32,759 nt of DNA from Patescibacteria group bacterium (lineage in GTDB: Bacteria; Patescibacteriota; Minisyncoccia; Phycocordibacterales; CAIZLB01). Shown here in pieces: positions 1,780-23,218 of the stretch (the first letter of the stretch is position 1; each line of letters begins with the position of its first letter). A program made the position numbers and the translations under genes. The notes under the pieces are model-generated. The model did no database searches and had not been told where the DNA came from. It saw only the letters and a program-made list of their open reading frames with translations. The stretch spans positions 1-32,759 of the forward strand of contig JAUPUG010000038.1 in NCBI GenBank assembly GCA_030917685.1. Direction: 5' to 3'.

Positions 1780-2310
1780 CTACTTCGCCAACTTTCCAAT
1801 CTCATGTCCTGCAAGTTCTTGTTCAGGCTCTGGTCGGCCAGCATGTTTTTTAGTAAATGCACTTGTTCCGTCCTTTCCACAAATCTTGAGAATATTAGCG
1901 GCTCCTCCTGGGTGCTCTGTTATGAAATTTGTTAGATCATATACTGTGCCTCGAACTGCTGTATAACAACTACTTGCGTTTAGATGCTTAGCGATTTCGG
2001 CGAGGGTATATGTTTTTGCTGATGCTTGTGTGTTCGTCTGTACAGTTGGCTGTGTCACACTTTTTTCTGACTGCGCATCACTTTTTTTCTGAGCCTCATC
2101 TCTAGCTGATTGCTCCTGAAGTTTTTGAATAGTTGCAGCGTCATCCTCTTCACCATCAGCACCAAAGTCTCGAGTTTCTTCCTCGATTTCAGTTCCAGAT
2201 ACTTCAGGATTAGAAGGGGAGTATGCTTTTTGCACGCCCAACACCTCATATCCGATGTATGCACCTGCGATAGCTAGTAATACGATTAGTGAAATTAATA
2301 TGTGTTTCAT
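1780..2310 (-). CDS. Cytochrome b5-like heme/steroid-binding protein with N-terminal membrane anchor
   Basis: YTLAEIAKH...CYTAVRGTVYDLTNFITEHPGG...CGKDGTSAF..H motif; hydrophobic N-terminus. Confidence 0.9.
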   Translation of the reverse strand: MKHILISLIVLLAIAGAYIGYEVLGVQKAYSPSNPEVSGTEIEEETRDFGADGEEDDAATIQKLQEQSARDEAQKKSDAQSEKSVTQPTVQTNTQASAKTYTLAEIAKHLNASSCYTAVRGTVYDLTNFITEHPGGAANILKICGKDGTSAFTKKHAGRPEPEQELAGHEIGKLAK

Positions 2311-2330
2311 GATGTGTGTCTTATGTATGT

Positions 2331-2990
2331 TTACTGCTTATCTACTAGTATATCAATAAATTGTCGAATATCCTGCTTGTAGGTGTTGAAGAGGTAAATA
2401 AAATCATCAGTGAATGAATCTGTGTTTTTAACAATCTCTTTCTCAATTTCCTCAAATGAATATAACAACACTCCTTTAGCTTCTCGGTCTACTGGTTTGG
2501 TGGCACCTCCATATATACCAAAGAATAGATGCATCTTGTTCGCAATAGTTATTTTTTCATTTTTAATAACTTTTGGAATAGAGACGAGCTTTACGTCGTG
2601 ATATAAAATCACAGCAATAGTATCTAAATAGTTTTCGAGTAGAGTGTAGGTCTTTTTAAATTCATCTTTAGTATTTAATACAATAGATGGAGTCTGAAGT
2701 TCCTGAACACTTTCAATCATAGTTGTGTAGTATGGTTGATCACCAAACTGAATATGTCCACCAATAGTCTTATCGAGTAAATCAGGATTATGATTTTTTG
2801 TAGAAGATCTTTTTTGTACTAAAAATTCACCAGAGCGGTTAAATAGAAAAACGTCTATTACTTCAACTGCTTCAGTTGGTGCACCTGTATCTTTAAAAGC
2901 TTGTATTTGCTCAGAGTAAAATTCAGCTCTGTCTTTTGAATAAGACTTAAAAGGATTGTCGATTTTACATACAGAAACTTGTTCAGACAT
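2331..2990 (-). CDS. NUDIX-fold hydrolase (IDI-like, degenerate Nudix box)
   Basis: VFLFNRSGEFLVQKRS..K..PDLLDKTIGGHI...ESVQEL pattern. Confidence 0.75.
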   Translation of the reverse strand: MSEQVSVCKIDNPFKSYSKDRAEFYSEQIQAFKDTGAPTEAVEVIDVFLFNRSGEFLVQKRSSTKNHNPDLLDKTIGGHIQFGDQPYYTTMIESVQELQTPSIVLNTKDEFKKTYTLLENYLDTIAVILYHDVKLVSIPKVIKNEKITIANKMHLFFGIYGGATKPVDREAKGVLLYSFEEIEKEIVKNTDSFTDDFIYLFNTYKQDIRQFIDILVDKQ

Positions 2991-3112
2991 ATTGAATCAT
3001 TATGGCGTTATTTACCCGCTTTTGCAAAGGGTGGGTTGGATAGGAGTGTCACTTTGAAAGGGGATAGTTCGCTGTCCAGACTGCGGAGCCATTACCTACA
3101 AATGCTTCCAAA

Positions 3113-3141
3113 TTGATTTTCACAAGCAAAAATGGTAATCT
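3113..3141 (+). promoter_or_regulatory. Sigma70-type promoter for tRNA-Gln
   Basis: TTGATT-17 bp-TAATCT, ending 10 nt before the tRNA. Confidence 0.55.
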
Positions 3142-3151
3142 AACCGAACAT

Positions 3152-3222
3152 TGGGAGATCGTCTAATGGTAGGACGAACGGTTCTGGTCCGTTTAATCGG
3201 GGTTCGAGTCCCTGTCTCCCAG
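3152..3222 (+). tRNA. tRNA-Gln (anticodon CTG), CCA not encoded
   Basis: Acceptor stem TGGGAGA/TCTCCCA plus G discriminator, D arm GTC-TAATGGTAG-GAC, anticodon arm AACGG-TTCTGGT-CCGTT, T arm with GGTTCGAGTCC. Confidence 0.95.
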
Positions 3223-3305
3223 CAGCCATGTGAGATAGACTGAGACGCCTAAATCAGTCATATTTCTCAACACATTTTAAACACGAGTCATGGGCTCGAA
3301 CTTTT
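3201..3305 (+). repeat. att-like element, copy 1 (tRNA 3' end plus about 83 bp downstream)
   Basis: Ungapped match to 5990-6094 at offset 2789: GGTTCGA.TCCC, AGCAG.CATGTGAGA, ACGCCTAAA, AGTCATGGGCTCGAACTTTT. Confidence 0.8.
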
Positions 3306-3420
3306 GTGATTTTTACAAAATCCAGAGTAGCCTTATTTTAAGGCGTTTTGTTGGTTCGAATCCTAGAAGGTTTTTTTATTGTAATGTGTGATTAGAAGGT
3401 TAAGGTCTGCTGAAAGTAAT

Positions 3421-3461
3421 TTGACGCCGGATTCATATTTATGTAAGATACTTACATAAAT
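3421..3461 (+). promoter_or_regulatory. marR operon promoter with overlapping palindromic operator
   Basis: TTGACG(3421)-17 bp-TAAGAT(3444); perfect inverted repeat ATTTATGTAAG-ata-CTTACATAAAT at 3437-3461 covers the -10. Confidence 0.8.
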
Positions 3462-3468
3462 CATAAAT

Positions 3469-3897
3469 ATGAATCGTTCCAAAAATGTCGAAGAAATAGT
3501 TGAGGGATTTAAGTTAATGAGACAACACTTGCGTGGATCGTCTTGCTCCGTATCTGAACTACCTCTGACACACTCACAATGGCTTGCGCTCATGGTGATT
3601 GGTCGTGGCCATTTGGTGACTATAGGAGACGTAAAGAAAACACTTGGAATATCAAGCAGTGCGGCAACACAGCTAGCTAATACTCTGGAGGAGAAAGGTC
3701 ATGTCATACGCACACCACTCTCCACTGATGCCCGTGCTTCAGTACTCGTGCTTTCATCTGACTCTAAGAAGAAGTTCGAGCACATGCGAACAAAAAAACT
3801 AAAGGAGTTTACAAAGTTATTTGATGTGTTCACGGACAATGAATTTTCTACATATGTACAATTGCAAGCTAAGCTAACAAAATCTATTTCCAAATAA
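3469..3897 (+). CDS. MarR-family transcriptional regulator
   Basis: LTHSQWLAL...LGISSSAATQLANTLEEKGHVIR...DAR winged-helix pattern. Confidence 0.9.
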   Translation: MNRSKNVEEIVEGFKLMRQHLRGSSCSVSELPLTHSQWLALMVIGRGHLVTIGDVKKTLGISSSAATQLANTLEEKGHVIRTPLSTDARASVLVLSSDSKKKFEHMRTKKLKEFTKLFDVFTDNEFSTYVQLQAKLTKSISK

Positions 3898-3900
3898 CTT

Positions 3901-5322
3901 ATGAACGAACGATCTAAAAAATTTCTAGAGGGACCTATCTTGACTTCATTGCTCACACTGGCTATTCCGATAGTTCTGGCAAATATCTTGCAGAGTCTCT
4001 ATCAGCTAACTGATGCTTTCTGGGTAGGACGATTGGGCGGTTCCGCGGTTGCTGCTGTTTCGGTGAGTTTTCCTGTCATTTTCTTGATGATAGCAGTTGG
4101 CGCAGGACTTGCAGTGGCTGGCTCAACACTTATCGCACAGTATGTGGGAGCAAGGAATGAAAAGATGGTCAGTCATGTAGCTTCACAAACCCTACTTATG
4201 GTTATCATTACCTCTGTAGTATTGGGAGCTATCGGATACGTTCTTGCACCGACAATTCTCCATGCGATAGGTGTTGCGCCAGATGTATTTGATCATGCAC
4301 TAGGATATATGCGGGTGTCATTTGTTGGTTTGGTATTTATGTTCAGCTTTGTAATGTTTCAGTCGATTATGCGCGGTATTGGACAAGTGACTCTGCCGAT
4401 GTTTATTGTTCTCGGCACTGTCCTACTAAATCTGGTACTAGATCCACTTTTTATATTTGGTTGGGGACCATTTTCAGGGCATGGTGTAATGGGAGCAGCG
4501 ATGGCTACATTGGTCACACAAGGTCTTTCAGCTTTGATTGGATTCGCAGTTTTATTTAAAGGAAAGCTTGGTATTCAGATACGGCTTCCCGATTTCAAAC
4601 CAGATTTTGCATTTATCAAAAGAGCATTCTTCTTGGGATTTCCTGCATCCATTGAACAATCGGCTCGCGCTCTTGGACTGGTCGTTATGACCGCTCTGAT
4701 TACTAGTTTTGGAACTTTGGCGATTGCTTCATATGGAGTAGGATCAAATATTCTGCAATTTATTATCATTCCGGCCATGGGAGTTTCTATGGCCGTCTCA
4801 ACATTAGTCGGTCAAAACATTGGCGCAGGAAATATAGAGCGAGCTTCTAGTATTGCAAAACTAGGAGCAATTATCTCATTTGTTGGTCTGACTCTTATTG
4901 GAGTTATAACTTTTATTTTTGCACCACATCTTATTGCTTTCTTTGTGCCTGGAGATGATGCGGTAATAGCGCTTGGTACAACGTTTGTACGTACTATGTC
5001 ACTTACATTCGGTTTTATGGGAGCACAATTGGCACTTACGGGGGTATTTCGTGCCTCAGGAAATATGATTGCCACTATGGTGATTGCACTAGTGTCGCAA
5101 TGGGGGTTGCAACTACCATTGGCTTTCATCTTGTCTCGGTACACGTCACTTGGTGTGAACGGATTATGGTGGGCATTTCCAATATCGAACGTCATCATTG
5201 CTGGTATTGCAATTGCTTGGTATGCAAAGGGTGACTGGAAAAAGAAACGACTCACCGATGATGAGCAGCTTGTAGAGGCGGTAAGTGAAGAGATTCTTGT
5301 TGAGGAGGGTATTAGAAAATAG
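3901..5322 (+). CDS. MATE-family efflux transporter
   Basis: 473 aa, about 12 TM; LAIPIVLANILQSLYQLTDAFWVGRLG and VGQNIGAGN motifs. Confidence 0.93.
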   Translation: MNERSKKFLEGPILTSLLTLAIPIVLANILQSLYQLTDAFWVGRLGGSAVAAVSVSFPVIFLMIAVGAGLAVAGSTLIAQYVGARNEKMVSHVASQTLLMVIITSVVLGAIGYVLAPTILHAIGVAPDVFDHALGYMRVSFVGLVFMFSFVMFQSIMRGIGQVTLPMFIVLGTVLLNLVLDPLFIFGWGPFSGHGVMGAAMATLVTQGLSALIGFAVLFKGKLGIQIRLPDFKPDFAFIKRAFFLGFPASIEQSARALGLVVMTALITSFGTLAIASYGVGSNILQFIIIPAMGVSMAVSTLVGQNIGAGNIERASSIAKLGAIISFVGLTLIGVITFIFAPHLIAFFVPGDDAVIALGTTFVRTMSLTFGFMGAQLALTGVFRASGNMIATMVIALVSQWGLQLPLAFILSRYTSLGVNGLWWAFPISNVIIAGIAIAWYAKGDWKKKRLTDDEQLVEAVSEEILVEEGIRK

Positions 5323-5376
5323 GTTAAGAAGTAATGATCAAAAGCAATTTAAAAATTATTAAATAATAAAAATAAC

Positions 5377-5967
5377 ATGGAACAAAACAAAATAAACATT
5401 AAAGTAATTGCAGGCAGTACCCGTGAAGGACGTTTTTCAGATAAAGCAGCTATATGGATTGCAGAAGAGGTTAAAAAACAAGACGGTGTTACCGTAGAGA
5501 TACTTGACCTACGTGATTATGAGATGCCATTTTTCAATGAGGCCGTCAGTCCTTCATTCAAAAGGGAACCGTACGAGAATGAAGCTGTTGCTCGCTTTAC
5601 AAAAAAAATTGAGGAAGGAGATGCGTTCATTATGGTAACTCCAGAATACAACCACAGCACTTCCGGTGTCTTGAAAAACGCTATTGATTGGGTCAGCCCA
5701 GAATGGAATAACAAACCTATTGCATTTGTGAGTTATGGATCTGTTGGTGGAGCGCGTGCTGTAGAGCAACTTCGTCTTATTGTCGTTGAACTCCAAATGG
5801 CACCTATCCGGGAAGCAATTCACATGAATGGAGAGCAGTATTTTCCAGTTGTTATGGGTAAAAGTAGTGCAGATGATTTATTTGCCAACTATGTTGAGAA
5901 AGCAGATGCGATGATTAAGCAGTTATTGTGGTGGACAAGCACATTAAAAGATGCGCGAAGTAAGTAG
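5377..5967 (+). CDS. NAD(P)H-dependent FMN reductase
   Basis: GSTREGRFS, VTPEYNHSTSGVLKNAIDW and SYGSVGGARAVEQLR motifs. Confidence 0.93.
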   Translation: MEQNKINIKVIAGSTREGRFSDKAAIWIAEEVKKQDGVTVEILDLRDYEMPFFNEAVSPSFKREPYENEAVARFTKKIEEGDAFIMVTPEYNHSTSGVLKNAIDWVSPEWNNKPIAFVSYGSVGGARAVEQLRLIVVELQMAPIREAIHMNGEQYFPVVMGKSSADDLFANYVEKADAMIKQLLWWTSTLKDARSK

Positions 5968-5989
5968 ACCAGTCAAGGGCGACCGAGAC

Positions 5990-6094
5990 GGTTCGAATCC
6001 CGTTGCGGCAGCAGTCATGTGAGACCTACCTAAACGCCTAAAACGGCTGTTTAGGAAGAATAGTTTTGAGAGCCAGTCATGGGCTCGAACTTTT
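5990..6094 (+). repeat. att-like element, copy 2, starting with an orphan tRNA 3' fragment
   Basis: GGTTCGAATCCCGT-TGCGGCA-G (T arm plus acceptor 3' strand), then blocks shared with 3201-3305 at identical spacing. Confidence 0.8.
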
Positions 6095-6156
6095 CAAAAA
6101 GGTACATCACAAGATACTATTCCGTTAATTGCATACCTGCTGAGTGCAGTATCCAG

Positions 6157-6190
6157 AACATAAAAGCACCCGATTGGGTGCTTTTATGTT
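6157..6190. terminator. Intrinsic terminator-like hairpin
   Basis: Perfect 15-bp stem AACATAAAAGCACCC-gatt-GGGTGCTTTTATGTT. Confidence 0.75.
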
Positions 6191-6218
6191 TATGCTTCAA
6201 AAATGATAAAATTGTGCT

Positions 6219-6986
6219 ATGGAATTGTCTACACAAAATAAGATCTCCCTACTCAAGACCGCTCTTGAAAAAGTAGACGATTTTTCTACTGAGTTTGGTT
6301 CTCAAATACAGAACATCTCTAATCAACACAAGACTAGTGGTGGTCACCTTGAGTATGCGTATGTTCAGCATTTCCATAAAGAAATTATAGGTCTGTCTAA
6401 GCTGTTTCAATATCTTCTAAAAGATGATTTTAATCAGAAGTATGTTTTCTTTGCTGTAAGAGGTTCGTTTGAAGTTATTTTCTACTTAGAATATGTGTTG
6501 AGATTGGCAAAAGAGGACAGTAAAAAAGTGCTTGAGTTACTCTCTCGGGATATGGCACAAATAGGAGCTGCACTTGATGTCGCAATTCCTCCAACAGAAG
6601 AACATGATATGCATAAGACATTGAAAGCTGTTGGTGTTGTAAATAAAATTCTCAAGACGGATTTTGATCTGACTAAAATAAAATCAAACACAAGAGTGTT
6701 TCCTTCGATAAAGGATCTGTGCGATAAAAGCTCGCTCAATCTTAAAGATTTAAAAGGGTCAGCTATGTACAGCATTTATGCTCTTTATAGTGAATCAAAT
6801 CATCTTCGTTTGGGCAATCAGCATGCCATCACTGACGATGTAGATTTGTTGACCTGTTGGGCTTTGGAATATTTCTTAGAAATCTATATTAAATTTTACC
6901 AACAGCTCATAGATACAAAAATCTTTCCTGAGAAATACGCCAATGGTTTGGCATCAATCAAGCAATCAGTGGGTATGAATTGGTAG
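6219..6986 (+). CDS. Hypothetical helical protein, DUF5677-like
   Basis: 255-aa ORF with R..E (VRGSFE) and YALYSESNH patterns reminiscent of DUF5677; the family call is tentative. Confidence 0.5.
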   Translation: MELSTQNKISLLKTALEKVDDFSTEFGSQIQNISNQHKTSGGHLEYAYVQHFHKEIIGLSKLFQYLLKDDFNQKYVFFAVRGSFEVIFYLEYVLRLAKEDSKKVLELLSRDMAQIGAALDVAIPPTEEHDMHKTLKAVGVVNKILKTDFDLTKIKSNTRVFPSIKDLCDKSSLNLKDLKGSAMYSIYALYSESNHLRLGNQHAITDDVDLLTCWALEYFLEIYIKFYQQLIDTKIFPEKYANGLASIKQSVGMNW

Positions 6987-6988
6987 GA

Positions 6989-7504
6989 CTAGCTTACTAG
7001 GCTCAACTGCTTCTCTTTAAGAATCAGCTTGCTTCTTAGGTGACTCAGTAATTCGCGCTTCTCATATAATGGTCTCTTTCTTAGAATGTGCTTTGCATAG
7101 TTTCTAATGTCCACTTCCTTTATCTTCACTTTCTCTTTGACCTCTCTTCCTAGTACTGATTCTTGGAATTCATTATGTGATTCAATCTCTGTTCTAATTC
7201 TGTCTTTCATCCCGATTTCATCTAGCGAAATTGTGTCCAGAACCATCGCTAGTTGTTCAATCAGATCTTCCTCTCGTATGTATCCGCATGGACAATCTTT
7301 GTCTTTAAACTTCGTGCATCCGTAGTAGACGTAGCGATTTGTCGTTCCATCCTTAAGCTTTTTGAATTTCTCATCAGCTGTTATTCCAGATCCGCATAGT
7401 CCACAAGTGATCATCTTAGTAAAGGCGAACTCCTTATCCTGAGTCCTTGTAAGGTGATCGTTGCTTATCTTGTCTTGCACTTGGTTATATAAGTCTTTGG
7501 TGAT
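6989..7504 (-). pseudogene. Large serine recombinase C-terminal remnant (zinc beta-ribbon)
   Basis: The frame extends upstream of the called GTG as ITKDLYNQVQ (end of the recombinase domain), followed by FTKMITCGLCGS...YVYYGCT...C. The catalytic N-terminus is absent. Confidence 0.85.
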
Positions 7505-9145
7505 GGTTCGGGAAACAACGGCTATGGTCTCGGTCTTGCGAGTGATGGTGGTGTGATTGTCTCAGGATATTCACAAGGGTCACTCGATCTTGATCCAGGT
7601 GCCGGTGTCGTTATGTCTACTCATGTAAATACATATGACGTATTTACGGTAAAGCTCAATAGTGCTGGTGAATATGTTTGGGGAAATAGTATTGGCGGGC
7701 AAGGAGACGATCGTCCTATAGAGCTTGCCGTTGATGCGTCTGACAATATTTATCTCCTGGGTTATTTCAATAATACAGTTGATTTTGATGCAAGTTCAGG
7801 AACAACCACTGCTGCGTCGCAAGGAGGTTCAGATACTTTTATTTTGAAATTGCAAAGTAATGGTCAGTTTGCATGGGTAAAGACTTTTGGTGGAAATTCA
7901 TATGATGAGGGGACAGGGCTCGCTGTTGATTCTGATGGTAATGCGTATGTCGCTTTTTATACCGTATCAACAAGCATCGATTTGGATCCTGGAGTTGGCA
8001 CAGATATTTATGAGCCTATAAGTGGAAATGCTTTTTTCTCAGTAGTGAAGCTTGCCACAAACGGTGACTACATATGGGGAAAGCCTTGGCGATCATCTCT
8101 TGATGCGTTTTATATATATCAAATAGCGCTCGACGAGCAGGGGGACGTGTATCTTGCTGGATATTCAGATGTAGCATTCGATATGGATCCAGGAGCTGGT
8201 ACGACGACACTCACTCCTCAACATGCAAATGATACATTTATAATCCGAATGGATTCGACGGGGGAATATATTTGGTCTGCACAAATAGCGGGACAAGCAG
8301 ATCAGGTTCCGTATGATATATCGGTCCGAGATGCGGGTGTGTATGTTGTTGGAATAACTGCAGGTAGTACCGACTTTGATCCTACTGCCGGCAGCTATCC
8401 TGTAGTCCCTACAGGCTCTGAGCAGTTTTTACTCAGACTATCTACTGATGTGACTGCACCTACGCTCGCTGAAGTATCATCTGTATCATCTGTTGGTACA
8501 GATACAACCCCTGATTATTCATTTAGTACCAATGAAGCTGGGACAGTTGTATATAGTGTGAATTGTCCAGGCTCACTTACAAATGCTCTAGTTGGTACAA
8601 ATGCTGTAACACTGCAGGAGCTCGCTGCGGGTACATACAGCTGTACTGTTGCGGTTCGCGATTCGTCTTACAATATAACTACGCTTGCACTATCACCATT
8701 TAGAATTGATTCAATTGCTGTGCCTTCTAGTTCAGCTACTGCGGGAGGTGGAATTATCCGAGGATGTACTGATGCAAAAGCAAAGAACTTTGCTTGGTTC
8801 GTACAACATGATCCATCGCTTTGTGTATACGGCGGTATGACTTTATCTACACAGGACACGACTTCAACAACTGCACCTAGTATATCAACTACAACAGTTG
8901 GCATATTTACACGGAATCTAACCGTAGGTTCTAAAGGAGCTGATGTACAGTCCCTTCAGAAATTATTAATTAGACTCAACCTTGGTCCATCTGCAAAACG
9001 TCTCATGGAACACGGTGCTACAAATCTATACGGTCCATTAACTCGAAATGCGGTGCGTGAGTTTCAGACTGCTGAGGGTATTAAACCATCTCATGGACTC
9101 ATGGGGCCTCTTACTCGAAATGCTCTTAGTTTGAAGGGGAGGTAG
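7505..9145 (+). pseudogene. 5'-truncated surface protein: SBBP-like beta-propeller repeats, Ig-like segment, GCTD motif, peptidoglycan-binding domain
   Basis: Repeats of the form D(L/F)DPGxG..D.F..KL.S.G.Y.W. The frame reads mid-repeat back to about 7505 with no signal peptide. C-terminal RNLTVGSKGADVQSLQ...YGPLTRNAVREFQ. Confidence 0.7.
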
Positions 9146-12909: not shown

Positions 12910-12976
12910 ATTAATTAACTAATGAAAGAAAGTCGCACCATAAGGACGGTCGTGTGGCTTGATTTCGCAAAATCAC

Positions 12977-13882
12977 ATGACACAGAAACACAATAATCAT
13001 TTAGACCAACTTGAGTCTGAAGCAATATTTATTTTCCGAGAGGCAGTAGAACAGTTTGAGAATCCCGTGCTCCTATTTTCTGGAGGAAAAGATTCAATCA
13101 CGCTTGTTCATCTGGCTCACAAAGCCTTTTACCCAGCCAAGATTCCATTCTCATTACTCCATATAGATACTGGACATAATTTTACAGAGACATTGGATTT
13201 TCGTGATGAGCTTGTAAAAAAGTATGGCGTTGATCTTGAGGTCGGGTATGTACAAGACTTGATAGATAGAGGGGTGGTACAAGAGGAAAAGGGAATTAAT
13301 CCAAGTCGAAACGGCCTCCAGTCCGCGACATTGCTCGAAAAACTTTCACAAAAAAAGTATGACGCTGCATTTGGTGGTGGAAGACGTGATGAAGAAAAAG
13401 CGCGTGCAAAAGAACGATTCTTTTCACATCGAGACGAATTCGGTCAGTGGGATCCAAAGAATCAAAGACCTGAAGTGTGGAATCTGTTTAACGGCAAAAA
13501 AGCACCAGGAGAATCGTTTCGAGTATTTCCTATATCAAACTTGACTGAGACTGATGTGTGGGAGTACATACAACGAGAAAAGATAGATTTACCAAGTTTG
13601 TATTTTGCACATGAGCGTAGTGTGGTTGAACGTGACGGCACCCTGCTCGCAGAATCGTCATACAACACACTGCTTCCAGGTGAATCATATGAGAAGCGAC
13701 GTATTCGATATCGAACACTCGGTTGTGTGACTATAACCGGCGCTGTTGAATCAGATGCTGACACGATAGACAAAGTAATAGAAGAAGTTAGAAGCTCAAA
13801 AGTAACTGAAAGAGGGACGCGGGCAGATGATGCCCGTTCAGAAGTTGCGATGGAAGAACGAAAGAAACAGGGATATTTTTAG
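12977..13882 (+). CDS. cysD: Sulfate adenylyltransferase subunit 2
   Basis: LESEAIFIFRE, LFSGGKDS, HIDTGHNF, GGGRRDEEKARAKER, MEERKKQGYF. ATG 12977 is preferred over TTG 12959. Confidence 0.96.
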   Translation: MTQKHNNHLDQLESEAIFIFREAVEQFENPVLLFSGGKDSITLVHLAHKAFYPAKIPFSLLHIDTGHNFTETLDFRDELVKKYGVDLEVGYVQDLIDRGVVQEEKGINPSRNGLQSATLLEKLSQKKYDAAFGGGRRDEEKARAKERFFSHRDEFGQWDPKNQRPEVWNLFNGKKAPGESFRVFPISNLTETDVWEYIQREKIDLPSLYFAHERSVVERDGTLLAESSYNTLLPGESYEKRRIRYRTLGCVTITGAVESDADTIDKVIEEVRSSKVTERGTRADDARSEVAMEERKKQGYF

Positions 13883-13922
13883 AAATAGTTGATGGAAATT
13901 ACATAAATTAAATAACAACCAA

Positions 13923-15413
13923 ATGAAACAAAAAGAATATATAGAACCTTCGCCAGTTAGGCATACAGGAACGGAGAGTGCCATAGCTGCACAAGCACCG
14001 CATTATAAAAAAACTCACCAAGTAGACCTCTTGCGGTTTATAACAGCAGGTAGTGTAGATGATGGAAAAAGTACACTCATAGGGCGACTGATGTACGATA
14101 CAAAATCAATATTTGAAGATCAGCTTAAAGCAATAGAAGCTTCTAGTAAAAAGCGTGGAGATGCACAAGTAGATCTTGCACTTCTGACCGACGGGCTTAA
14201 AGCTGAGCGTGAACAGGGTATTACTATCGATGTAGCATATAGATATTTTTCTACACCAAATAGAAAATTTATTATGGCAGACACTCCAGGACATATTGAA
14301 TATACACGTAACATGTTCACTGGTGCATCAACTGCTGATGCTGTAATTATTTTAATAGATGCACGACATGGAGTTATTGAGCAAACGCGAAGACATACTT
14401 TTATAGCTACGTTGCTCGGTATTCGTCACATCATCGTTGCTATCAACAAGATGGACTTAGTAGATTTTGATCAAAAAATTTTTGAAAAAATAAAAGAGGA
14501 ATATCAAACTTTGATAGCTTCGACGCTGTCTGGTTCAACGTCAAAAAATAAACACGAACTTCATTTCATTCCAATAAGTGCATTGCGTGGTGATAATGTA
14601 GTAGATATTTCAAAACACACACCATGGTATAAAGGCGATACGATTTTGGAGACTTTAGAAAATGTGGATGTGCATTCAGGTGTAAATGTAAATCAACACT
14701 CGCTGGCAGCAGACGCGAACCCTGTGTCTCTCGGTAGATTTCCAGTGCAGAGAGTAATACGTCCGCAGTCAGCTGAGTTCCCAGATTTTCGAGGTTATGC
14801 AGGGCGGGTCGAGGGTGGAGTATTTCGTCCTGGCGATTCGGTTGTGATATTTCCCTCAGATCAAAAGACGCGAATCGATAAGATATATAAATATAAAAAT
14901 GAGCCCACTGAAGCAGTATCTTCCGATTCGATTGTAATGACTCTAGTGGATGATATTGATATTAGCAGAGGGGATATGATAGTTCAGGATTATTTACAAA
15001 AATCTGCGCGACAACCTATACACCAGATACATCAACCTATACACCAGTATGCATATCAATCTTTGCCTCAAGTAAGTAATGAGCTGAATGTATTAGTGAA
15101 TTGGTTCAGTGCTACCAACTTGCAAATAGATAGGCTGTATATATTGAGACATACAACACTTGAAACAAAAGCAGTTGTGAAGTCAATTGAATACAAAATA
15201 GATATTCAGACACTTACGCCGATACATACCATGGAAAACAGAGTCGGCACCGATATTGATGTAAAAATTGGGAAAAACGATATCGCGCGGATACAAATAA
15301 AAACTGCAAAGCCATTATATTTTGATTTATTTTCTCAAAATAAAGTTACCGGTTCGATATTACTCATTGATTCGTATACAAATGAGACAGTGGCGGCTGG
15401 TGTTGTTGTGTAG
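13923..15413 (+). CDS. cysN: Sulfate adenylyltransferase subunit 1 (GTPase), no APS kinase fusion
   Basis: GSVDDGKSTLIGRL, EREQGITIDVAYRYF, DTPGH, NKMD; ends at TNETVAAGVV. Confidence 0.96.
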   Translation: MKQKEYIEPSPVRHTGTESAIAAQAPHYKKTHQVDLLRFITAGSVDDGKSTLIGRLMYDTKSIFEDQLKAIEASSKKRGDAQVDLALLTDGLKAEREQGITIDVAYRYFSTPNRKFIMADTPGHIEYTRNMFTGASTADAVIILIDARHGVIEQTRRHTFIATLLGIRHIIVAINKMDLVDFDQKIFEKIKEEYQTLIASTLSGSTSKNKHELHFIPISALRGDNVVDISKHTPWYKGDTILETLENVDVHSGVNVNQHSLAADANPVSLGRFPVQRVIRPQSAEFPDFRGYAGRVEGGVFRPGDSVVIFPSDQKTRIDKIYKYKNEPTEAVSSDSIVMTLVDDIDISRGDMIVQDYLQKSARQPIHQIHQPIHQYAYQSLPQVSNELNVLVNWFSATNLQIDRLYILRHTTLETKAVVKSIEYKIDIQTLTPIHTMENRVGTDIDVKIGKNDIARIQIKTAKPLYFDLFSQNKVTGSILLIDSYTNETVAAGVVV

Positions 15414-17568: not shown

Positions 17569-18462
17569 ATGGCAATTCCAAAATTTGATGAGACAATGCT
17601 TCCTATATTAAGAGTTTTGAGTGATGGTAAACCAAGACAATTAATAGAGGTTTCTGGAATCCTGGAAAATGAATTCGGAGTAACGGATGAGGAGAGAGAA
17701 CAGACTGTTTCAAATGGGTATACAAAGTTCTATGACAGAGTCTCATGGGGAAGAACGTATTTAAAGAAAGCTGGATTAATAGTGCAAGAATCGCGAGGGT
17801 CAGATGTTTGTATAACAGAGGAGGGTTTAAAAATTATAAATGCAAAAATCGATAAAATGGATATAGATTTTCTTAAAAGATATCCATCTTTTATGTTGTT
17901 TGTAGACGGAGGAACTAAAACGCCCGAAGAGATAAATAATACTTTGTCAGGAAATCTCTCACCTCAAGACATGATTGATCAGGGTTTTGCAAGATTCTCG
18001 AATACCCTCAAGAGTGATCTTTTGGAAAAACTGCAGAGTACAAATCCATATTTCTTCGAAAGAGTTGCATTGATACTCTTCCAAAAAATGGGTTATGGTG
18101 ATTTTCAAGAAACTTCAAAATCGGGCGATGGAGGAATTGACGGAGTTATTAGTCAGGATAAGTTAGGTCTAGAGAAAATCTATATTCAAGCAAAGAGATT
18201 TGCGAGTACAAATAAAGTTAGAGAGCCAGAAATTAGAAACTTTATTGGCGCAATGAGTGGAGATGTAAGTAAGGGAATTTTTGTCACGACTTCATCTTTT
18301 GATGAATCTGCAGTACAGAAGGCTAAGAATGCAAGTCATAAGATTGTATTAATTGATGGCGATGCACTCACAGATTTAATGATTAAATATGGAGTAGGTG
18401 TTCAAACTGCCTCAGTCTATGAATTGAAAGAGATCGATACTGACTTTTTCGAAGTATCCTAA
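17569..18462 (+). CDS. mrr: Mrr restriction endonuclease (type IV)
   Basis: Mrr_N (MAIPKFDETMLPIL...WGRTYLKKAGL) plus Mrr_cat (SGDGGIDG...IYIQAKR...GIFVTTS). Confidence 0.93.
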   Translation: MAIPKFDETMLPILRVLSDGKPRQLIEVSGILENEFGVTDEEREQTVSNGYTKFYDRVSWGRTYLKKAGLIVQESRGSDVCITEEGLKIINAKIDKMDIDFLKRYPSFMLFVDGGTKTPEEINNTLSGNLSPQDMIDQGFARFSNTLKSDLLEKLQSTNPYFFERVALILFQKMGYGDFQETSKSGDGGIDGVISQDKLGLEKIYIQAKRFASTNKVREPEIRNFIGAMSGDVSKGIFVTTSSFDESAVQKAKNASHKIVLIDGDALTDLMIKYGVGVQTASVYELKEIDTDFFEVS

Positions 18463-18506
18463 AATCTAGCCAAAATGCATATAAAATATGCTAAAATACC
18501 CTACAC

Positions 18507-19973
18507 ATGTTCGAACAAGCCTTTAAAAATATAGATGATTCTCTGCGGAAAGATGCCGGTTCATCAAGCGAACTCGACTATATCGAGCAGACTTCATGGA
18601 TACTCTTTTTGAAGTATTTGGATGATTTGGAGAAAGATAGAGCTATCTCTGCAAAGCTAGCTGGTAAAAAATACCAATATGTACTACCCGAGGAATTGCG
18701 ATGGGAGACTTGGGCGTGTCCAAAAAACGCAGAAGGGAAGCTTGATCATACAAAAGCTCAAAATGGTGAAGACTTGAAAGATTTTGTTGATCAGAAGCTT
18801 TTTCCTACTCTCAAGAAGTTCAAAGTAGATGCAGAACATGCTGATACTATCGAATACAAGATTGGAGAGATTTTTAGTGAATTGAAAAATAAGATTCAAA
18901 GTGGATATACAATTCGAAATGTTTTAAATATTATCGACAAAATGCACTTTCGTTCGCAAGAAGAAAAGCATGAACTCTCACATCTTTATGAAGGAAAGAT
19001 CAAAAACATGGGTAATGCTGGTAAAAATGGAGGTGAGTACTATACTCCGCGTCCACTCATTAAAACTATTGTACAAGTAGTTGGTCCAAAGATCGGCGAT
19101 ACTATATATGACGGTGCTGTAGGCTCTGCGGGTTTTCTTGTAGAAGCTTTTGAGTATCTCAAAATGAGCAAGGGAAGTATTGAGAAACTTTCTGTAAAAG
19201 AAATGAATACTCTACAAAAAGAGACCTTCTATGGAAAAGAGAAAAAGTCTCTTGCGTACATCATTGGTATTATGAATATGATCTTGCATGGTATCGATGC
19301 ACCAAATATTATTCATACAAATACGCTGGGTGAAAACTTGATGGATATTCAAGAGAAAGATAGATACTCTGTAGTGCTCGCAAACCCGCCTTTTGGAGGT
19401 AAAGAACATACAGAGGTACAACAAAACTTTCCTATAAAAACAGGAGAGACTGCTTCATTGTTCTTGCAGCATTTTATAAAAATCCTCAAAGCAGGAGGAA
19501 AAGCTGGTGTGGTTATTAAAAATACTTTTCTCTCAAATACTGATAATGCATCTGTGGCTCTTCGAAAGCTTTTGCTTGAAAGTTGTAATCTTCATACAGT
19601 CCTCGATCTCCCAGGAGGAACTTTTACAGGTGCAGGGGTAAAGACTGTTGTACTTTTTTTCGAAAAAGGAAAAACGACAAAGAAAGTGTGGTTCTATCAG
19701 CTCAATCTCGATAGAAATCTCGGCAGAACTAATCCACTCAATGAAAAAGATTTGGCTGATTTCATAACTCTTCAAAAGACTAAGGCTGACTCTGAAAATT
19801 CATGGTCGGTGGATGTTTCGACTATTGATCAGAATACATTTGACCTTTCGGTAAAGAATCCAAACAAAGGTGGGGAAGTGAAGCTTCGTGAGCCGAAGGA
19901 TATTTTGAAGGAGATTTCTGAATTAGATAAAGAAAGTATAGAAATATTATCAGTAATAAAATCTATTATATAA
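18507..19973 (+). CDS. hsdM: Type I R-M N6-adenine methyltransferase
   Basis: GEYYTPRPLI, YDGAVGSAGFL and NPPF motifs. Confidence 0.95.
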   Translation: MFEQAFKNIDDSLRKDAGSSSELDYIEQTSWILFLKYLDDLEKDRAISAKLAGKKYQYVLPEELRWETWACPKNAEGKLDHTKAQNGEDLKDFVDQKLFPTLKKFKVDAEHADTIEYKIGEIFSELKNKIQSGYTIRNVLNIIDKMHFRSQEEKHELSHLYEGKIKNMGNAGKNGGEYYTPRPLIKTIVQVVGPKIGDTIYDGAVGSAGFLVEAFEYLKMSKGSIEKLSVKEMNTLQKETFYGKEKKSLAYIIGIMNMILHGIDAPNIIHTNTLGENLMDIQEKDRYSVVLANPPFGGKEHTEVQQNFPIKTGETASLFLQHFIKILKAGGKAGVVIKNTFLSNTDNASVALRKLLLESCNLHTVLDLPGGTFTGAGVKTVVLFFEKGKTTKKVWFYQLNLDRNLGRTNPLNEKDLADFITLQKTKADSENSWSVDVSTIDQNTFDLSVKNPNKGGEVKLREPKDILKEISELDKESIEILSVIKSII

Positions 19974-19977
19974 AAAT

Positions 19978-20235
19978 ATGAACGGCATAAAATTTTCAGA
20001 TATAAAGACAGAGTTGCAGGCTGCCTTAGGTGAAAAATTAAAACAGACCCCAATTCTCGGGGAGGCCGGTTTTACGTTGATTGATGGTTTTATGACCTTG
20101 TCACTTAACGGTGAGTTATCAAACAATTTAATCATTGGTGGTCCAAGCATTCCTACTGTTGGAATTGTCGGTAACACGTCTGGTCGAATCTATACTTTTG
20201 CCTTGAAGGTTATTCTTCCTAATATTAAGATTTAA
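19978..20235 (+). CDS. Small hypothetical protein inserted in the hsd operon
   Basis: 85 aa; starts 4 nt after the hsdM stop and ends 1 nt before the next ATG. Confidence 0.7.
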   Translation: MNGIKFSDIKTELQAALGEKLKQTPILGEAGFTLIDGFMTLSLNGELSNNLIIGGPSIPTVGIVGNTSGRIYTFALKVILPNIKI

Positions 20236-20236
20236 T

Positions 20237-20767
20237 ATGAATGAAAATACTACAGAGGTATCATCAGATGTAAACGCTAAGCCTGCTGATTCTTCACAAA
20301 TTAGTGAAAATTTAGCTATTCAGAATACCGTAAATACCGAAACTTTTGATAATTTAAAGAAAGAAGTATTACAACTTAAAGATGATTTTAATAATGAAAA
20401 AAATAAAATTGTCTCGCTTAAAACAGATTTTGAAAAAAGTAAATTTGATCTAATTACGCTCATTGGTATTTTTGTAGGTTTAATTACTTATTTAGGTCTA
20501 GAAATTCAGGTGTTTAAAACTATTAACAATCCACTTTTAATCATTGGTGTATCAGTATTTTTTATCGCCTCGATCTTATTATTCATTCTCGGTATAAATT
20601 CAGTAATGAAGAAGATGGAGTCACTCACATGGAGAGATTTTAATAATCCTCTATACGTTATACTCACAGTTTTATTAATTATATCTATATTTTTTATTCT
20701 TATTGGTTATAAAGACTATTCAAATAGTAATCTCAATATTCACTATATAAGCAATTATGAAAACTAA
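20237..20767 (+). CDS. Coiled-coil plus 3-TM membrane protein inserted in the hsd operon
   Basis: Coiled coil FDNLKKEVLQLKDDF..., three hydrophobic segments; overlaps the hsdS start. Confidence 0.75.
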   Translation: MNENTTEVSSDVNAKPADSSQISENLAIQNTVNTETFDNLKKEVLQLKDDFNNEKNKIVSLKTDFEKSKFDLITLIGIFVGLITYLGLEIQVFKTINNPLLIIGVSVFFIASILLFILGINSVMKKMESLTWRDFNNPLYVILTVLLIISIFFILIGYKDYSNSNLNIHYISNYEN

Positions 20768-21968
20768 CTGGCAAACGAAAAAACTTGGAGAAGTTTGCGA
20801 GATTGTAAACGGCTCAACCCCATTGAGAAGTAATAAGGATTTTTGGGAGGGCGGTAATATTGATTGGTTTACAATTGAGGATATTAGGAAGCAGGGGAGA
20901 GTTATAAGGATTACTGAACAAAAAATTACTCAAAGAGCATTGAAAAAGATGGGTGATAGATTATTGCCGCCTGAGTCGGTATTGTTGTGCTGTACTGCAT
21001 CGGTGGGAGAATATGCCATAACAAAGGTACCTCTCGTAACAAATCAGCAATTCAATGGTTTGGTTATAAAAGATTCTAGAATTCTTAACCCTATGTTTTT
21101 GTTTTATTTTTCCTCAATGCTTAAGGATCATCTCCTGACACTTAGTGGCAAAGCTACAATTGATTTTATTCCTATAAGTAGATTGAAGAATATTGATATA
21201 AACTATCCTCAAATCTCTGAACAAAAGAGAATAGTCAAAATCCTAGATGAAACTTTTAAAAAAATTGAAAGAATAAAGAAGAATTTAGAAGCAAATCGGA
21301 GCAGTTCTATAGAGTTTTTTGACTCCTATTTGCAGGATGTGTTAAAAATGAATGCAAAAAAATGGAAAAGTTCAATTTTGAAGGAGTTGTCCATCAAAAT
21401 AGGGAGTGGGGCCACCCCTAGAGGAGGAAAGGATTCTTATACCAATGAAGGCACTTCTCTTGTTAGGAGTATGAATGTGCACGATAGATTTTTTAAAGAA
21501 AAGAATCTTGCTTACATAAACGAAAAACAAGCTAAGGATCTATCGAATGTTACTCTTGAAGAGAATGATGTGCTTGTAAATATTACAGGTGCATCAGTCG
21601 CGAGGTCGTGTGTATTTCCTGGAAAGTATTTGCCAGCAAGAGTCAATCAGCACGTATCAATCATCAGAGTGGATCAAGATGTGATTGATCCAAAATTCTT
21701 AAACTTCCTTTTAACTTCTAATTTTTATAAAAAGCAACTCCTTGCTACAGGTGAGCAAGGATCGACTCGACAAGCAATAACTAAATCGCAGCTAGAGTGT
21801 TTTGAGGTTGAATACCCATCTCTGGTAGAACAAAAATCCATCGTCAAAAAACTAGACGCCCTCTCAGAAAAAACTAAAAAACTAGAAGAAATCTACAAGA
21901 GAAAACTCCAGAATATAGATGAGCTTAAAAAGTCTATTTTGCAGAAGGCTTTTAATGGGAAGCTATAG
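20757..21968 (+). CDS. hsdS: Type I R-M specificity subunit
   Basis: Two target recognition domains (W..KKLGEV...GSTP; WK..LKEL...GSGATP) with P..EQKRIV..LD conserved helices. Confidence 0.93.
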   Translation: MKTNWQTKKLGEVCEIVNGSTPLRSNKDFWEGGNIDWFTIEDIRKQGRVIRITEQKITQRALKKMGDRLLPPESVLLCCTASVGEYAITKVPLVTNQQFNGLVIKDSRILNPMFLFYFSSMLKDHLLTLSGKATIDFIPISRLKNIDINYPQISEQKRIVKILDETFKKIERIKKNLEANRSSSIEFFDSYLQDVLKMNAKKWKSSILKELSIKIGSGATPRGGKDSYTNEGTSLVRSMNVHDRFFKEKNLAYINEKQAKDLSNVTLEENDVLVNITGASVARSCVFPGKYLPARVNQHVSIIRVDQDVIDPKFLNFLLTSNFYKKQLLATGEQGSTRQAITKSQLECFEVEYPSLVEQKSIVKKLDALSEKTKKLEEIYKRKLQNIDELKKSILQKAFNGKL

Positions 21969-22045
21969 GTTTGTATACATCTCTTGACTCAATGTATACA
22001 AACCTATATACTTTCTATACATTCAAAAAAAGATGTATACAAACC
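21964..22045 (+). promoter_or_regulatory. fic-hsdR internal promoter with three operator boxes
   Basis: 17-bp perfect inverted repeat 21964-21980/21992-22008 flanking TTGACT(21984)-17 bp-TATACT(22007); third ATGTATACAAACC at 22033. Confidence 0.8.
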
Positions 22046-23199
22046 CTAAAATCATGCAAATAGGCCAAAATATCCCACAGAAAGGAGGTTTTAAAGCTTT
22101 TATTCCAGACACCTTTCCACCAAAGGCTGGCTTTGAATTTGATTCAAGCATTATAAAAAAGAGTAATGAAGCTACACGACTTCTTGGTAAACTCGATGGT
22201 ATTACCAAGCTTCTTCCTGATGCTGACTTCTTTTTGCTTATGTATCTTAGAAAAGATGCGGCATCTTCAAGTCAGATTGAGGGAACAATGGCAACTATGG
22301 TAGATGCAATAGAAGTTGAAATACAACAAAGCTCAAATATTCCGCAAGATGTGGATGATATTTTGCATTACATAAAAGCACTCAACTACGGAATAAAAAG
22401 AGTGACCGACGAAGACTTTCCTATTTCACTCCGTTTTATTTGTGAGTTACATAAGCAACTTATGGACCAGGCTCGTTCGACACATCATGCGTATCCAGGT
22501 GAGTTTCGTCGAAGTCAAAACTGGATTGGTGGTACTAAACCAGAAACTGCTCGTTTTGTTCCACCGCCAGTAGAAGATATGCAGCGAGCACTCAATGATC
22601 TTGAAAAATTTATTCACTCAGAGGATTCTCTGTTGGATATTATTAAAGCTGGATTAATTCACTCGCAGTTTGAAACCATCCACCCTTTTACTGATGGTAA
22701 TGGAAGAACAGGGCGAATGCTTATTACGTTCTATCTATGGAAAGTTGGTCTACTTGAAAAGCCCGTTCTATTCCTCTCGTCATACTTTAAAAGACACCAA
22801 GAAGTGTATTACGAAAAGCTAGCAAGCTATCATAGTGATAACGGTAATATTTCAGATTGGATAAACTTCTTTCTTGATGGAGTTATTGAAATTGCAAAGG
22901 AAGCAATATCAACAGTTGAAAAAATCACTATTCTTCGAGAGAAAGATATGCTCAAGATCCAAAAACTTGGTAAGCGTGCATCAGAGAGTGCTTCTTTGGT
23001 GTTGCCAAAATTATACGCGCAGCCGATTATAAGTGTATCCCTTATCCAAAAGTGGACAGGTTTTACAAGAGCAGGAGCGCAGGCTGTTATTGATCGTTTT
23101 ATTGAACTCGGGATATTATCTCCTAAAGATAAGGATAAAAAGTATGGACAGTCGTATATTTACAAAAAGTATATTACTATATTCAGTGAGGGTGAATAA
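22033..23199 (+). CDS. Fic-family protein (Fic_N plus Fic, likely AMPylase, C-terminal wHTH-like region)
   Basis: Canonical HPFTDGNGRTGR and N-terminal inhibitory SSQIEG. The start may be ATG 22054. Confidence 0.92.
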   Translation: MYTNPKIMQIGQNIPQKGGFKAFIPDTFPPKAGFEFDSSIIKKSNEATRLLGKLDGITKLLPDADFFLLMYLRKDAASSSQIEGTMATMVDAIEVEIQQSSNIPQDVDDILHYIKALNYGIKRVTDEDFPISLRFICELHKQLMDQARSTHHAYPGEFRRSQNWIGGTKPETARFVPPPVEDMQRALNDLEKFIHSEDSLLDIIKAGLIHSQFETIHPFTDGNGRTGRMLITFYLWKVGLLEKPVLFLSSYFKRHQEVYYEKLASYHSDNGNISDWINFFLDGVIEIAKEAISTVEKITILREKDMLKIQKLGKRASESASLVLPKLYAQPIISVSLIQKWTGFTRAGAQAVIDRFIELGILSPKDKDKKYGQSYIYKKYITIFSEGE

Positions 23200-23218
23200 A
23201 ATCAATTAATCTATTACC

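Follow-up and report, generated by a model that had tools for sequence, protein, structure and literature searches.

What are the two related repeats of ~105 bp that bracket three genes behind a glutamine tRNA gene in a bacterium of the Patescibacteria, and how did these genes come to lie between them? The repeats lie on contig JAUPUG010000038.1 of assembly GCA_030917685.1, of which we analyzed positions 1 to 32,759 (hereafter, the window). The source is a metagenome-assembled genome (MAG) of 728.7 kb in 86 contigs, with a completeness of 79%. A first-pass annotation, made from the letters alone, had read the repeats as a recombination site. Herein, we present comparative evidence that they are probably att-type junctions of elements mobilized by a large serine recombinase (LSR) and accreted in tandem behind tRNA-Gln(CTG). 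Gene exchange in the tiny genomes of the Patescibacteria (the candidate phyla radiation, CPR) is poorly understood. Many genomic islands and highly expressed ccrB-like recombinases have been described in this group, in papers whose relevant passages name no integration site or mechanism (PMC12455944, PMC9938205). Our search of the full-text literature, whose coverage leaves out most subscription journals, found no description of the present system. Throughout, G### denotes genomes and L### loci, while X2, X6, X8 and X17 denote metagenome runs and are distinct from the X arms defined below.

Two junction-like repeats of the same build in the window

The window holds a gapless direct repeat, in which positions 3201–3305 align with 5990–6094 at an offset of 2789. 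One block of 53 nt (3201–3253 and 5990–6042) is 74% identical and another of 31 nt (3275–3305 and 6064–6094) is 84% identical, both at a spacing of 2789; over 3217–3305 and 6006–6094, the copies agree at 58 of 89 positions (65%). GTTCGA at 3202–3207 and 5991–5996 is mirrored by TCGAAC at 3296–3301 and 6085–6090, and this inverted pair spans 100 bp from outer end to outer end in either copy. AG(C/T)CATG is likewise doubled, at 3224–3230 and 3286–3292 in copy 1 and at 6013–6019 and 6075–6081 in copy 2. A central hairpin is predicted in each copy from different sequence, GACTGA/TCAGTC in copy 1 (z = -2.3 versus shuffles) and CCTAAACGCC/GGC-GTTTAGG in copy 2 (z = -3.4). The repeat, the inverted motifs, the doubled AG(C/T)CATG and the two hairpins had been listed in the first-pass annotation, and every detail given there was confirmed in the sequence.

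ARAGORN and Rfam both place tRNA-Gln(CTG) at 3152–3223; therefore, copy 1 begins inside its T-arm. The T-arm and the 3′ strand of the acceptor stem (3201–3223) form the left (B) arm of the first junction. This tRNA gene is intact, its T-loop reads GGTTCGAGTCC, and the Cyt-b5 gene upstream of it is syntenic with the tRNA-Gln(CTG) locus of a relative, G007. In both copies the left arm runs into CAGCAG, and we use the term module for the ~80 nt that follow this hexamer. The module is of type B in copy 1 and of type A in copy 2, where the place of the tRNA end is taken by an arm that we call X1.

A search profile built from 16 junction elements, both window copies included, matched only these two copies in the 728.7-kb assembly (E ~1e-23, far beyond a chance match), and the profile scan found no further module or X arm in the remainder of the window. 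The module of copy 1 is 88–89% identical to modules of G128 and G153, which belong to other families, while the module of copy 2 is 92% identical to modules lying directly behind tRNA-Gln in G007 and G010. Since each copy is closer to foreign copies (88–92%) than to its partner (65%), the pair did not originate in a local duplication.

A family of large serine recombinases is linked to tRNA 3′ ends

An alignment of five LSRs was searched against a species-representative genome collection, yielding 416 relatives, from which 80 loci were kept. According to their record titles, these loci come from Patescibacteria, mostly from MAGs of the Parcubacteria/Paceibacteria type. The LSRs of G007, G010, G006 and G153 are 438–446 aa long and carry the catalytic, recombinase and zinc-ribbon domains of an LSR (Resolvase, PF00239; Recombinase, PF07508; Zn_ribbon, PF13408). 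The serine motif YARKSTEQ is invariant in all five aligned sequences, and the nearest solved relative is SprA/YokA of SPbeta (E 3e-14).

In LSR elements, the recombinase gene is located beside the attachment site at one end, and the loci agree with this. The first convergent tRNA after the LSR stop codon is tRNA-Gln in 45 of the 80 loci, and in 41 of the 62 loci that have at least 3 kb of room; no tRNA-Gln was found elsewhere in the 80 loci. Within 250 bp of the LSR stop codon, 19 of the 80 loci have a tRNA (13 Gln, 2 Arg, 2 Leu, 1 Met, 1 Lys). No convergent tRNA was found in 24 of the 80, 14 of which have less than 3 kb of room. Modules are present in 24 of the 80 loci. There are 30 of them, all on the tRNA strand; 17 abut a tRNA 3′ end, and those that do not abut a tRNA follow X arms. 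The first-pass annotation had proposed that the repeat is a recombination site of the serine recombinase family and would co-occur with tRNAs and recombinases in other genomes, and the comparison supports both expectations.

The sequence behind the tRNA is conserved regardless of the tRNA type in the 19 loci with a close tRNA. One group, with ATGCTAAGTCAGGTGAC, follows Gln, Met, Leu and Lys tRNAs; another, with CATGT.AGTGAGACCTACCGAG, follows Arg and Leu tRNAs and resembles the start of the module. The module itself also abuts tRNA-Met, in L081. In L072, L078, L097, L109, L112 and L114–L116, a trailer of the type found at 6095–6190 in the window separates the tRNA from the LSR stop codon. Because the post-tRNA sequence is conserved across tRNAs, and the trailer lies between tRNA and LSR, we assign the module and the trailer to the element and not to the host. 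Most likely, this LSR family of ~438 aa inserts small islands at tRNA 3′ ends in Patescibacteria, mostly at tRNA-Gln.

The 3′ ends of tRNA genes are also the classic targets of tyrosine integrases, and exact duplications of 19–22 nt of a tRNA 3′ end, starting in the T-loop, occur in G078, L014 and L119. Both facts would suit a tyrosine integrase, or another unseen recombinase, that made the junctions while the LSR was a passenger. However, a Pfam scan of 22 + 15 + 13 + 20 + 50 + 47 open reading frames (ORFs) from the window and 12 related loci found no tyrosine recombinase domain in any island, nor any site-specific recombinase other than LSRs. The scan did find two transposase domains, Y1_Tnp/IS200 in G038 and a 91-aa DDE_Tnp_IS1595 ORF in L119. 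Furthermore, the linkage between LSR and tRNA is strong and oriented, and the tRNA-adjacent sequence tracks the LSR element, not the tRNA. We therefore regard a role for the LSR as mere passenger as very unlikely.

Homology between genomes breaks at the tRNA end

Window positions 6009–7505 correspond to G007:C6 15539–17035, with 93% identity over 1497 bp. The homology begins at 6009, with the CAGCAG at the end of the G007 tRNA. There, dnaX and tRNA-Gln(TTG) are followed by the module, the trailer and its terminator, the 255-aa gene also found in the window, and a full 438-aa LSR. The left flank of the window matches a different locus of G007, that of tRNA-Gln(CTG) and not that of tRNA-Gln(TTG). 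Comparison with G007 and G010 therefore reveals an insertion of 2789 bp (~3226–6014) between the tRNA end and the type-A module of the window.

The cargo carried between the module and the LSR differs among relatives: the 255-aa gene in G007, a 210-aa ORF in G008, HamA and a helicase in G010, and DUF305/DsbA/DsbB/P-type ATPase/M23 genes in G006. Together with the metagenome contigs described below, these genomes show that cargo differs at exactly the boundaries where the first-pass annotation had expected gain or loss. The inserted cassette of the window encodes a MarR-family regulator, a MATE transporter and an FMN reductase. As a whole it was not found in 400 sampled genomes of the order, which held separate FMN-reductase and MATE homologues only (63–85%). 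The ~75 bp upstream of the LSR start are conserved in G007, G010 and G006. We considered this stretch as an edge of the element and rejected it; conservation of a gene and its promoter between variable cargo is more likely.

X arms imitate the 3′ end of a tRNA

Modules occupy two places. They lie either directly 3′ of tRNA-Gln, with either anticodon (G007, G010, G006, G008, G164, G128, G405, G223, G324 and G363), or behind an X arm. In 13 of 14 such non-tRNA arms, GGTTC is located at -25 to -21 from the joint, an offset that equals the distance of the T-loop in a tRNA; G038 is the exception. X-arm junctions with GGTTC at this position were found in G000, G078, G128, G153, L062, L074, L077, L079 and L085.

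X1 is the commonest arm. Its core is GACCGAGACGGTTCGAATCC....GCGGCAGCAG. In the window, the arm resembles the 3′ half of tRNA-Gln: ACCAG is followed by a variable region of increased size, by GGTTCGAATCC, and by a stretch similar to an acceptor strand that leads into CAGCAG. Homologues of X1 are found, despite differing cargo, in G078 (after an LD-carboxypeptidase gene), L062 (two arms), L074, L077, L079 and L085 (two arms). X1 is not called as a tRNA by ARAGORN and is unable to pair with a local acceptor stem. Since it lacks local pairing, goes uncalled and is shared across cargo, X1 is best regarded as borne by the element and not as a decayed fragment of the host. We also tried and rejected the idea that copy 2 is what decay has left of the 3′ end of a former tRNA-Gln(TTG), which is at odds with the retention of X1 across genomes with other cargo and with the missing local pairing.

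The first-pass annotation had suggested that the T-loop, whose motif bounds the repeat in inverted orientation, may act as a binding half-site. On the left side the suggestion fits the fixed offset of GGTTC, and it extends to tRNA-Arg, -Leu, -Lys and -Met, which are also used. On the right side, where the minus-strand GTTCGA falls within the invariant 3′ block of the module, it is not supported.

CAGCAG marks the joint in junctions of many independent types, and this regularity bears on a rival explanation, whereby the cassette was gained by ordinary homologous recombination through tRNA-Gln and the module with its trailer, and no site-specific recombinase was involved. The flanks could serve for such an exchange, as the tRNA (72 nt) and the module plus trailer (~180 nt, 82–93% identical) are conserved between genomes; besides, several module-bearing loci lack a nearby LSR, and the LSR of the window is dead. 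Nevertheless, homologous exchange would not make internal junctions of an X arm with a module. Nor does it sit well with a single junction position for so many types, with X arms kept across unrelated cargo at a fixed GGTTC offset, or with the tRNA end lying within 250 bp of the LSR gene in the 19 loci mentioned above. Altogether, we judge this explanation unlikely.

Two side observations concern the same motifs. The exact 11-nt GGTTCGAATCC occurs at 3353–3363 and 5990–6000, and thus flanks the cargo genes on both sides. The sequence that trails type-B modules (TTATTTTAAG.C...GGTTCGAGTCC) is similar to the left portion of the X arms in L085 and L062. Both observations hint that "empty" units exist, or that cargo is exchanged at a second level.

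The cassette in independent metagenomes

The stretch, or part of it, is held by 20 listed runs from 13 studies, and contigs of four runs were compared with the window over 2300–7700. Because assembled contigs were compared, rare forms would be lost. The parts uncovered in X6, X8 and X17 (2300–3150 and ~6300–7300) were not used as evidence.

Contigs of X2, another run of the source study, tile 2300–7700 with no differences in the listed pieces, the junction at 7505 included. At 7505, one X2 contig reads on into a complete LSR gene; this sample therefore also contains a variant with the LSR intact. In X6 (groundwater, 2017), contigs cover 3220–6028, and the main pieces have 0–4 differences each; two variant pieces of lower depth, with 33 and 17 differences, were set aside. 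The adjoining tRNA piece of X6 has 6 differences in 60 nt, and a contig of this run departs from the window after ~6024 into a different sequence of P′ type. Pieces of X8 (wastewater, 2020) cover 3278–6014 with a gap at 5239–5497 and show 0–1 differences per listed piece, while X17 (groundwater, 2024) contributes scattered pieces within 3256–5816, with ~1.9 kb covered and 0–1 differences each. X6, X8 and X17 belong to three other studies. Since the cassette is near-identical in these independent metagenomes and its flanks there differ, it is a discrete unit, bounded at the repeats, that also exists in other genomic settings.

Joints that lead from other tRNA-Gln variants directly into module A were also found, 3175->6009 in X2 and 3214->6006 in X6. 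Two further joints, 3225->7347 in X8 and 3244->7362 in X6, have short sides of 22–34 nt only.

A MAG fragmented into 86 contigs invites the suspicion that the arrangement is an assembly chimera at the repeat, since repeats can cause mis-joins, or else a local duplication. The identities of the two copies to each other (65%) and to copies elsewhere (88–92%) speak against such an origin, as do the tiling of 2300–7700 by another run of the source study and the presence of the cassette with both ends in other studies. We consider either origin extremely improbable.

The module is of fixed length and variable interior

The pattern CATGTGA-N48-62-AGTCATGGNNNCGAAC was found in 10 of 401 genomes of the order, from several families, and the reversed control pattern in none. 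Modules from many genomes, 35 in all, align without a single gap and are of fixed length. Their start (CA.C..CATGTGA) and their end (GTCATGG.C.CGAA) are invariant blocks, and the middle is variable. In outline, the CATGTGAGA start is followed by a hairpin and then by the 3′ block GTCATGG.C.CGAAC. In some copies only, TAGTCTC in the tRNA arm and GAGACCTA at the module start form an imperfect inverted repeat around CAGCAG.

The position of the module directly behind a tRNA, its fixed length and the lack of any indel in 35 copies would also be expected of a structured non-coding RNA, such as a tRNA-linked 3′ trailer or a processing or terminator signal, that was duplicated since each element must supply a working trailer. 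The predicted folding of single copies is stronger than that of shuffled sequence (z -1.8 to -6.0), and a 10-bp hairpin of type A includes one pair that covaries (UA in five copies, GC in five). In type B, the 3′ block forms a hairpin with a T-run behind it; the block might terminate the tRNA transcript, or it might be another site bound by a protein. However, the variable middle forms different hairpins in different subtypes. RNAalifold gave weak support, with one compensated pair, on 7 module sequences, and found no consensus pair over all 35, in which the central hairpin has no single register; a single conserved RNA fold for the family was therefore rejected. The hairpins noted in the first-pass annotation are predicted in both window copies, with no common register across the family. 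The best-conserved parts of the module are sequence blocks and not stems, and some copies stand behind X arms with no tRNA attached. An Rfam scan of 2500–7000 (E up to 10) returned only the tRNA and hits at chance level, and scans of four other tRNA-Gln loci returned only tRNAs. Moreover, the sporadic distribution of modules, with ~89% identity between different families, points to mobile DNA. That the module is chiefly a non-coding RNA appears quite improbable, and the RNA reading may in any case be compatible with accretion by an LSR.

Other candidates were dropped. Permuted tmRNA, split tRNA, SRP RNA and 6S RNA found no support from ARAGORN or Rfam, and a small ORF came down to ATG-TGA and peptides of 4–9 aa.

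As a side observation, L008, L012, L014 and L018 (genomes G017, G009, G029 and G022) share another conserved block, non-coding and ~110 nt long, behind tRNA-Gln and its terminator. The block has no Rfam match; in L014, its last 19 nt repeat the tRNA 3′ end exactly, from the T-loop onward. It is probably the remnant of another type of element at the same tRNA.

Modules and cassettes form arrays

Stacking of cassettes, as the first-pass annotation had envisaged, is seen in other genomes as arrays of two to at least four modules. In G078, tRNA-Gln(CTG) is followed by a 175-bp insert, a module, NUDIX and LD-carboxypeptidase genes, X1 and a second module, such that two modules bracket the NUDIX and LD-carboxypeptidase genes. 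The order in G128 is tRNA-Gln, module B, an X|P′ junction and the LSR, with an X|module A junction 17.8 kb further on. L085 holds four modules, one cut by the end of the locus and one beyond the LSR; its cassettes are 0.9–1.3 kb long and carry a serine hydrolase with NUDIX, and an HXXEE protein. L062 and L079 hold two modules each. Junctions of X plus P′ lie beyond the LSR in L100 and G128. In L119, the tRNA-Leu 3′ end has an exact repeat of 21 nt located 5.4 kb beyond the LSR start, which bounds an island of ~6.8 kb.

The 175-bp insert of G078 (L056 10630–10810) lies between exact 22-nt repeats of the tRNA 3′ end and contains an inverted copy of that end, giving a long hairpin. In L029 (G038:C1 120000–134000), tRNA-Gln(TTG) is followed by an element-type trailer without a module, then by a 9.5-kb stretch with type I restriction-modification (R-M) genes and an IS200-like Y1 transposase, and then by an X′|type-B module junction.

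Proposed order of events at the locus

The features of the locus are listed in Table 1.

Table 1. Features of the tRNA-Gln(CTG) locus in the window
Feature	Positions	Strand	Evidence
tRNA-Gln(CTG), putative integration target	3152–3223	+	ARAGORN; Rfam tRNA, 56.8 bits
Repeat copy 1, attL-like junction: tRNA 3′ end, CAGCAG (3220–3225), 80-nt type-B module (3226–3305)	3201–3305	+	
Tail of type-B module: two terminator-like hairpins, third T-loop-like GGTTCGAATCC (3353–3363), T-run	3306–3385	+	
Perfect 14-nt inverted repeat with 18-nt spacer, overlapping a promoter-like site and the MarR start codon	3430–3475		
Cargo gene 1, MarR-family regulator	3469–3897	+	Pfam MarR_2, E 1.7e-12
Cargo gene 2, MATE efflux transporter	3901–5322	+	Pfam MatE, E 4.6e-62
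Cargo gene 3, NADPH-dependent FMN reductase	5377–5967	+	Pfam FMN_red, E 1.3e-42
X1 arm, putative right-end (P) arm of the cassette	5968–6014	+	after FMN reductase stop codon
Repeat copy 2, internal junction: X1 arm and type-A module (6015–6094)	5990–6094	+	
Conserved trailer GATACTATTCCGT...GCATACCTGCTGAG.GCAGTATCC and bidirectional terminator hairpin (6157–6171 / 6176–6190)	6095–6190		
Hypothetical 255-aa protein, putative cargo of the older LSR-bearing element	6219–6986	+	
Large serine recombinase (LSR) remnant	6989–7504	-	residues 268–438 only

The tail at 3306–3385 is homologous to tails behind type-B modules in G038, G078, G223, G363, L085 and L062. The palindrome at 3430–3475 is probably the autoregulatory MarR operator of the cassette. 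The 255-aa protein has no Pfam family; its counterpart at this position in G007 is 96% identical in amino acid sequence. The LSR remnant is a 163-aa ORF with a Zn_ribbon_recom domain as its only Pfam match; it aligns by tblastn at 98.8% to residues 268–438 of the G007 LSR (zinc ribbon and C-terminal part), and the catalytic domain is missing.

The proposed process would comprise three steps. In the first, an LSR element made up of the type-A module, the trailer, the 255-aa gene and the LSR would have sat behind the tRNA. Each element would have the module as the arm next to the tRNA, and at its far end an X arm that imitates the tRNA 3′ end. In the second step, a recombinase-less cassette (type-B module, MarR, MATE, FMN reductase and X1; 2789 bp, ~3226–6014) would have entered between the tRNA end and the type-A module. 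A second element entering at the resident tRNA|module joint in this way would leave X|module as an internal joint. As the cassette has no recombinase, it was presumably mobilized in trans by an LSR. In the third step, the resident LSR gene would have been truncated at 7505.

We infer that the LSR catalyzes these insertions and that GGTTC is a recognition element. The crossover would lie between the T-loop and ~10 nt past the tRNA end and is best placed at CAGCAG, a position favored because homology breaks at 6009 and contigs of X6 and X8 begin or end at 3220 and 6014–6028. The T-loop-starting duplications of 19–22 nt in L119, G078 and L014 look more like the behavior of a tyrosine integrase and count against a firm placement of the crossover.

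Several further observations weigh against accretion by an LSR and kept us from a firmer conclusion. The LSR of the window is a dead, truncated remnant: it breaks off at 7505, where all four relatives continue with the full 438-aa gene, and no other LSR copy was found in the assembly, which is 79% complete. The link with a nearby recombinase drawn in the first-pass annotation thus applies to the family in relatives, whereas the window's own copy could not act. No LSR was found within ~6–8 kb on each side (or up to the contig end) of the modules in G078, G223, G324 and G405, nor in the stretch examined around the module locus of G038. An exact search for repeats of the tRNA end found an attR repeat of at least 12 nt at only 5 of 49 loci. 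Neither a circle junction nor an empty site of the same strain was seen in the compared contigs. Textbook LSR sites are att sites of ~40–50 bp in which imperfect inverted half-sites surround a 2-bp crossover, and attP is not identical to attB over any long stretch. Only the 2-bp crossover is shared by such sites, as opposed to a conserved unit of ~105 bp here, and accretion by an LSR does not account for the strict 80-nt length and the invariant 3′ block of the module. Finally, attL is not a normal target of LSRs, and insertion into an existing attL must be assumed. With these points counted, we still consider tandem accretion by an LSR the likely origin of the two junctions.

Relation to known systems

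Of 937 elements in Prochlorococcus, 910 rely on tyrosine recombinases and just the remaining few on an LSR; by the available account, these tycheposons and tRNA-proximal islands are small, cargo-carrying integrative elements at tRNA genes of a streamlined genome, as in the present case (Hackl et al., bioRxiv 10.1101/2020.12.28.424599). Other likenesses to that account are that later arrivals push earlier ones outward, that partial tRNA copies lie between elements, that degenerate integrases are common, and that cargo is adaptive or defensive. The present system differs from what is described there in its linked enzyme, an LSR, in a fixed-length 80-nt module beyond the tRNA copy, and in its hosts, the Patescibacteria.

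Composite SCCmec/SCC islands, moved by the serine recombinases CcrA/CcrB, are situated at the 3′ end of rlmH. They share with the present locus a large serine recombinase, the 3′ end of an intact conserved gene as target, direct repeats at each joint, and tandem arrays that include recombinase-less "pseudo" elements. The present target, on the other hand, is a tRNA, there is one recombinase gene and not ccrAB, the repeat unit is ~105 bp with a conserved distal block and not a site of ~18 bp, and the role of the enzyme is deduced here from sequence alone. Cis-mobilizable elements (CIMEs) accrete beside ICEs in streptococci. There too, an att-bounded element without a recombinase stands in tandem with a recombinase-bearing one and an internal att site is left; CIMEs depend on tyrosine integrases and conjugative elements, whereas no conjugation genes were seen here.

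The comparison with integrons made in the first-pass annotation proved to be a loose one. Stacked cassettes, sites of ~60–140 bp, inverted end motifs, conserved spacing and a variable interior are common to both. Integrons, however, use the tyrosine recombinase IntI, and no recombinase of this type was found in the scanned ORFs of the window and 12 related loci. In integrons, attC sites have RYYYAAC ... GTTRRRY cores, and the cassette edges fall inside the core. The present end motifs GTTCGAG/CTCGAAC do not fit GTTRRRY, having C and not R at position 4, and the cassette edges lie at CAGCAG, the tRNA end, ~20 nt from the left motif. Integron cassettes are mostly single, promoter-less ORFs, while the present cassette has three genes, its own MarR regulator, a promoter-like site and an operator-like palindrome. 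A folded single-strand substrate, as in integrons, receives no support from RNAalifold on the modules.

In conclusion, the locus displays what characterizes tandem accretion, namely an intact tRNA-Gln, X arms imitating the tRNA 3′ end, and a recombinase-less cassette abutting an LSR element.

Neighboring genes

At ~7505, the LSR remnant is fused to a beta-propeller/peptidoglycan-binding gene (7490–9145). The frame of this gene opens only at ~7493 and starts directly in SBBP-type repeats, and the remnant and the gene therefore look truncated by one deletion or rearrangement. A defense-type cluster at 17569–25591 contains Mrr, a type I R-M system (HsdM, HsdS and HsdR) with a Fic/DOC gene inserted between HsdS and HsdR, and a PD-(D/E)XK protein after it; the cluster may be further island cargo. 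At 12959–15413, a PAPS-reductase-type gene is situated beside an EF-Tu-like GTPase gene. This pair looks like the CysD/CysN sulfate adenylyltransferase, which is unexpected in a genome so reduced.

Implications for gene exchange in Patescibacteria

A broader possibility, which we put forward tentatively and regard as rather less than an even prospect, is that Patescibacteria have a cassette system built on a serine and not a tyrosine recombinase, in which one LSR family would read the universal T-loop and the 3′ end of a tRNA as its chromosomal site and serve a pool of recombinase-less cassettes with standard ends, the 80-nt module at one and the tRNA-like X arm at the other. If so, each insertion would regenerate a competent target, and arrays would grow behind tRNA-Gln. 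The data point to a concrete, testable system, in which the LSR family, its target (the 3′ ends of tRNAs, chiefly of tRNA-Gln) and the element ends are all defined, and recombinase-less cassettes travel between organisms. LSRs with a site at the tRNA end and repeated insertion at one joint would be of interest among the serine integrases used for genome engineering. For the ultra-small bacteria themselves, such a system would mean a shared and exchangeable accessory genome of efflux, metal resistance and defense genes.

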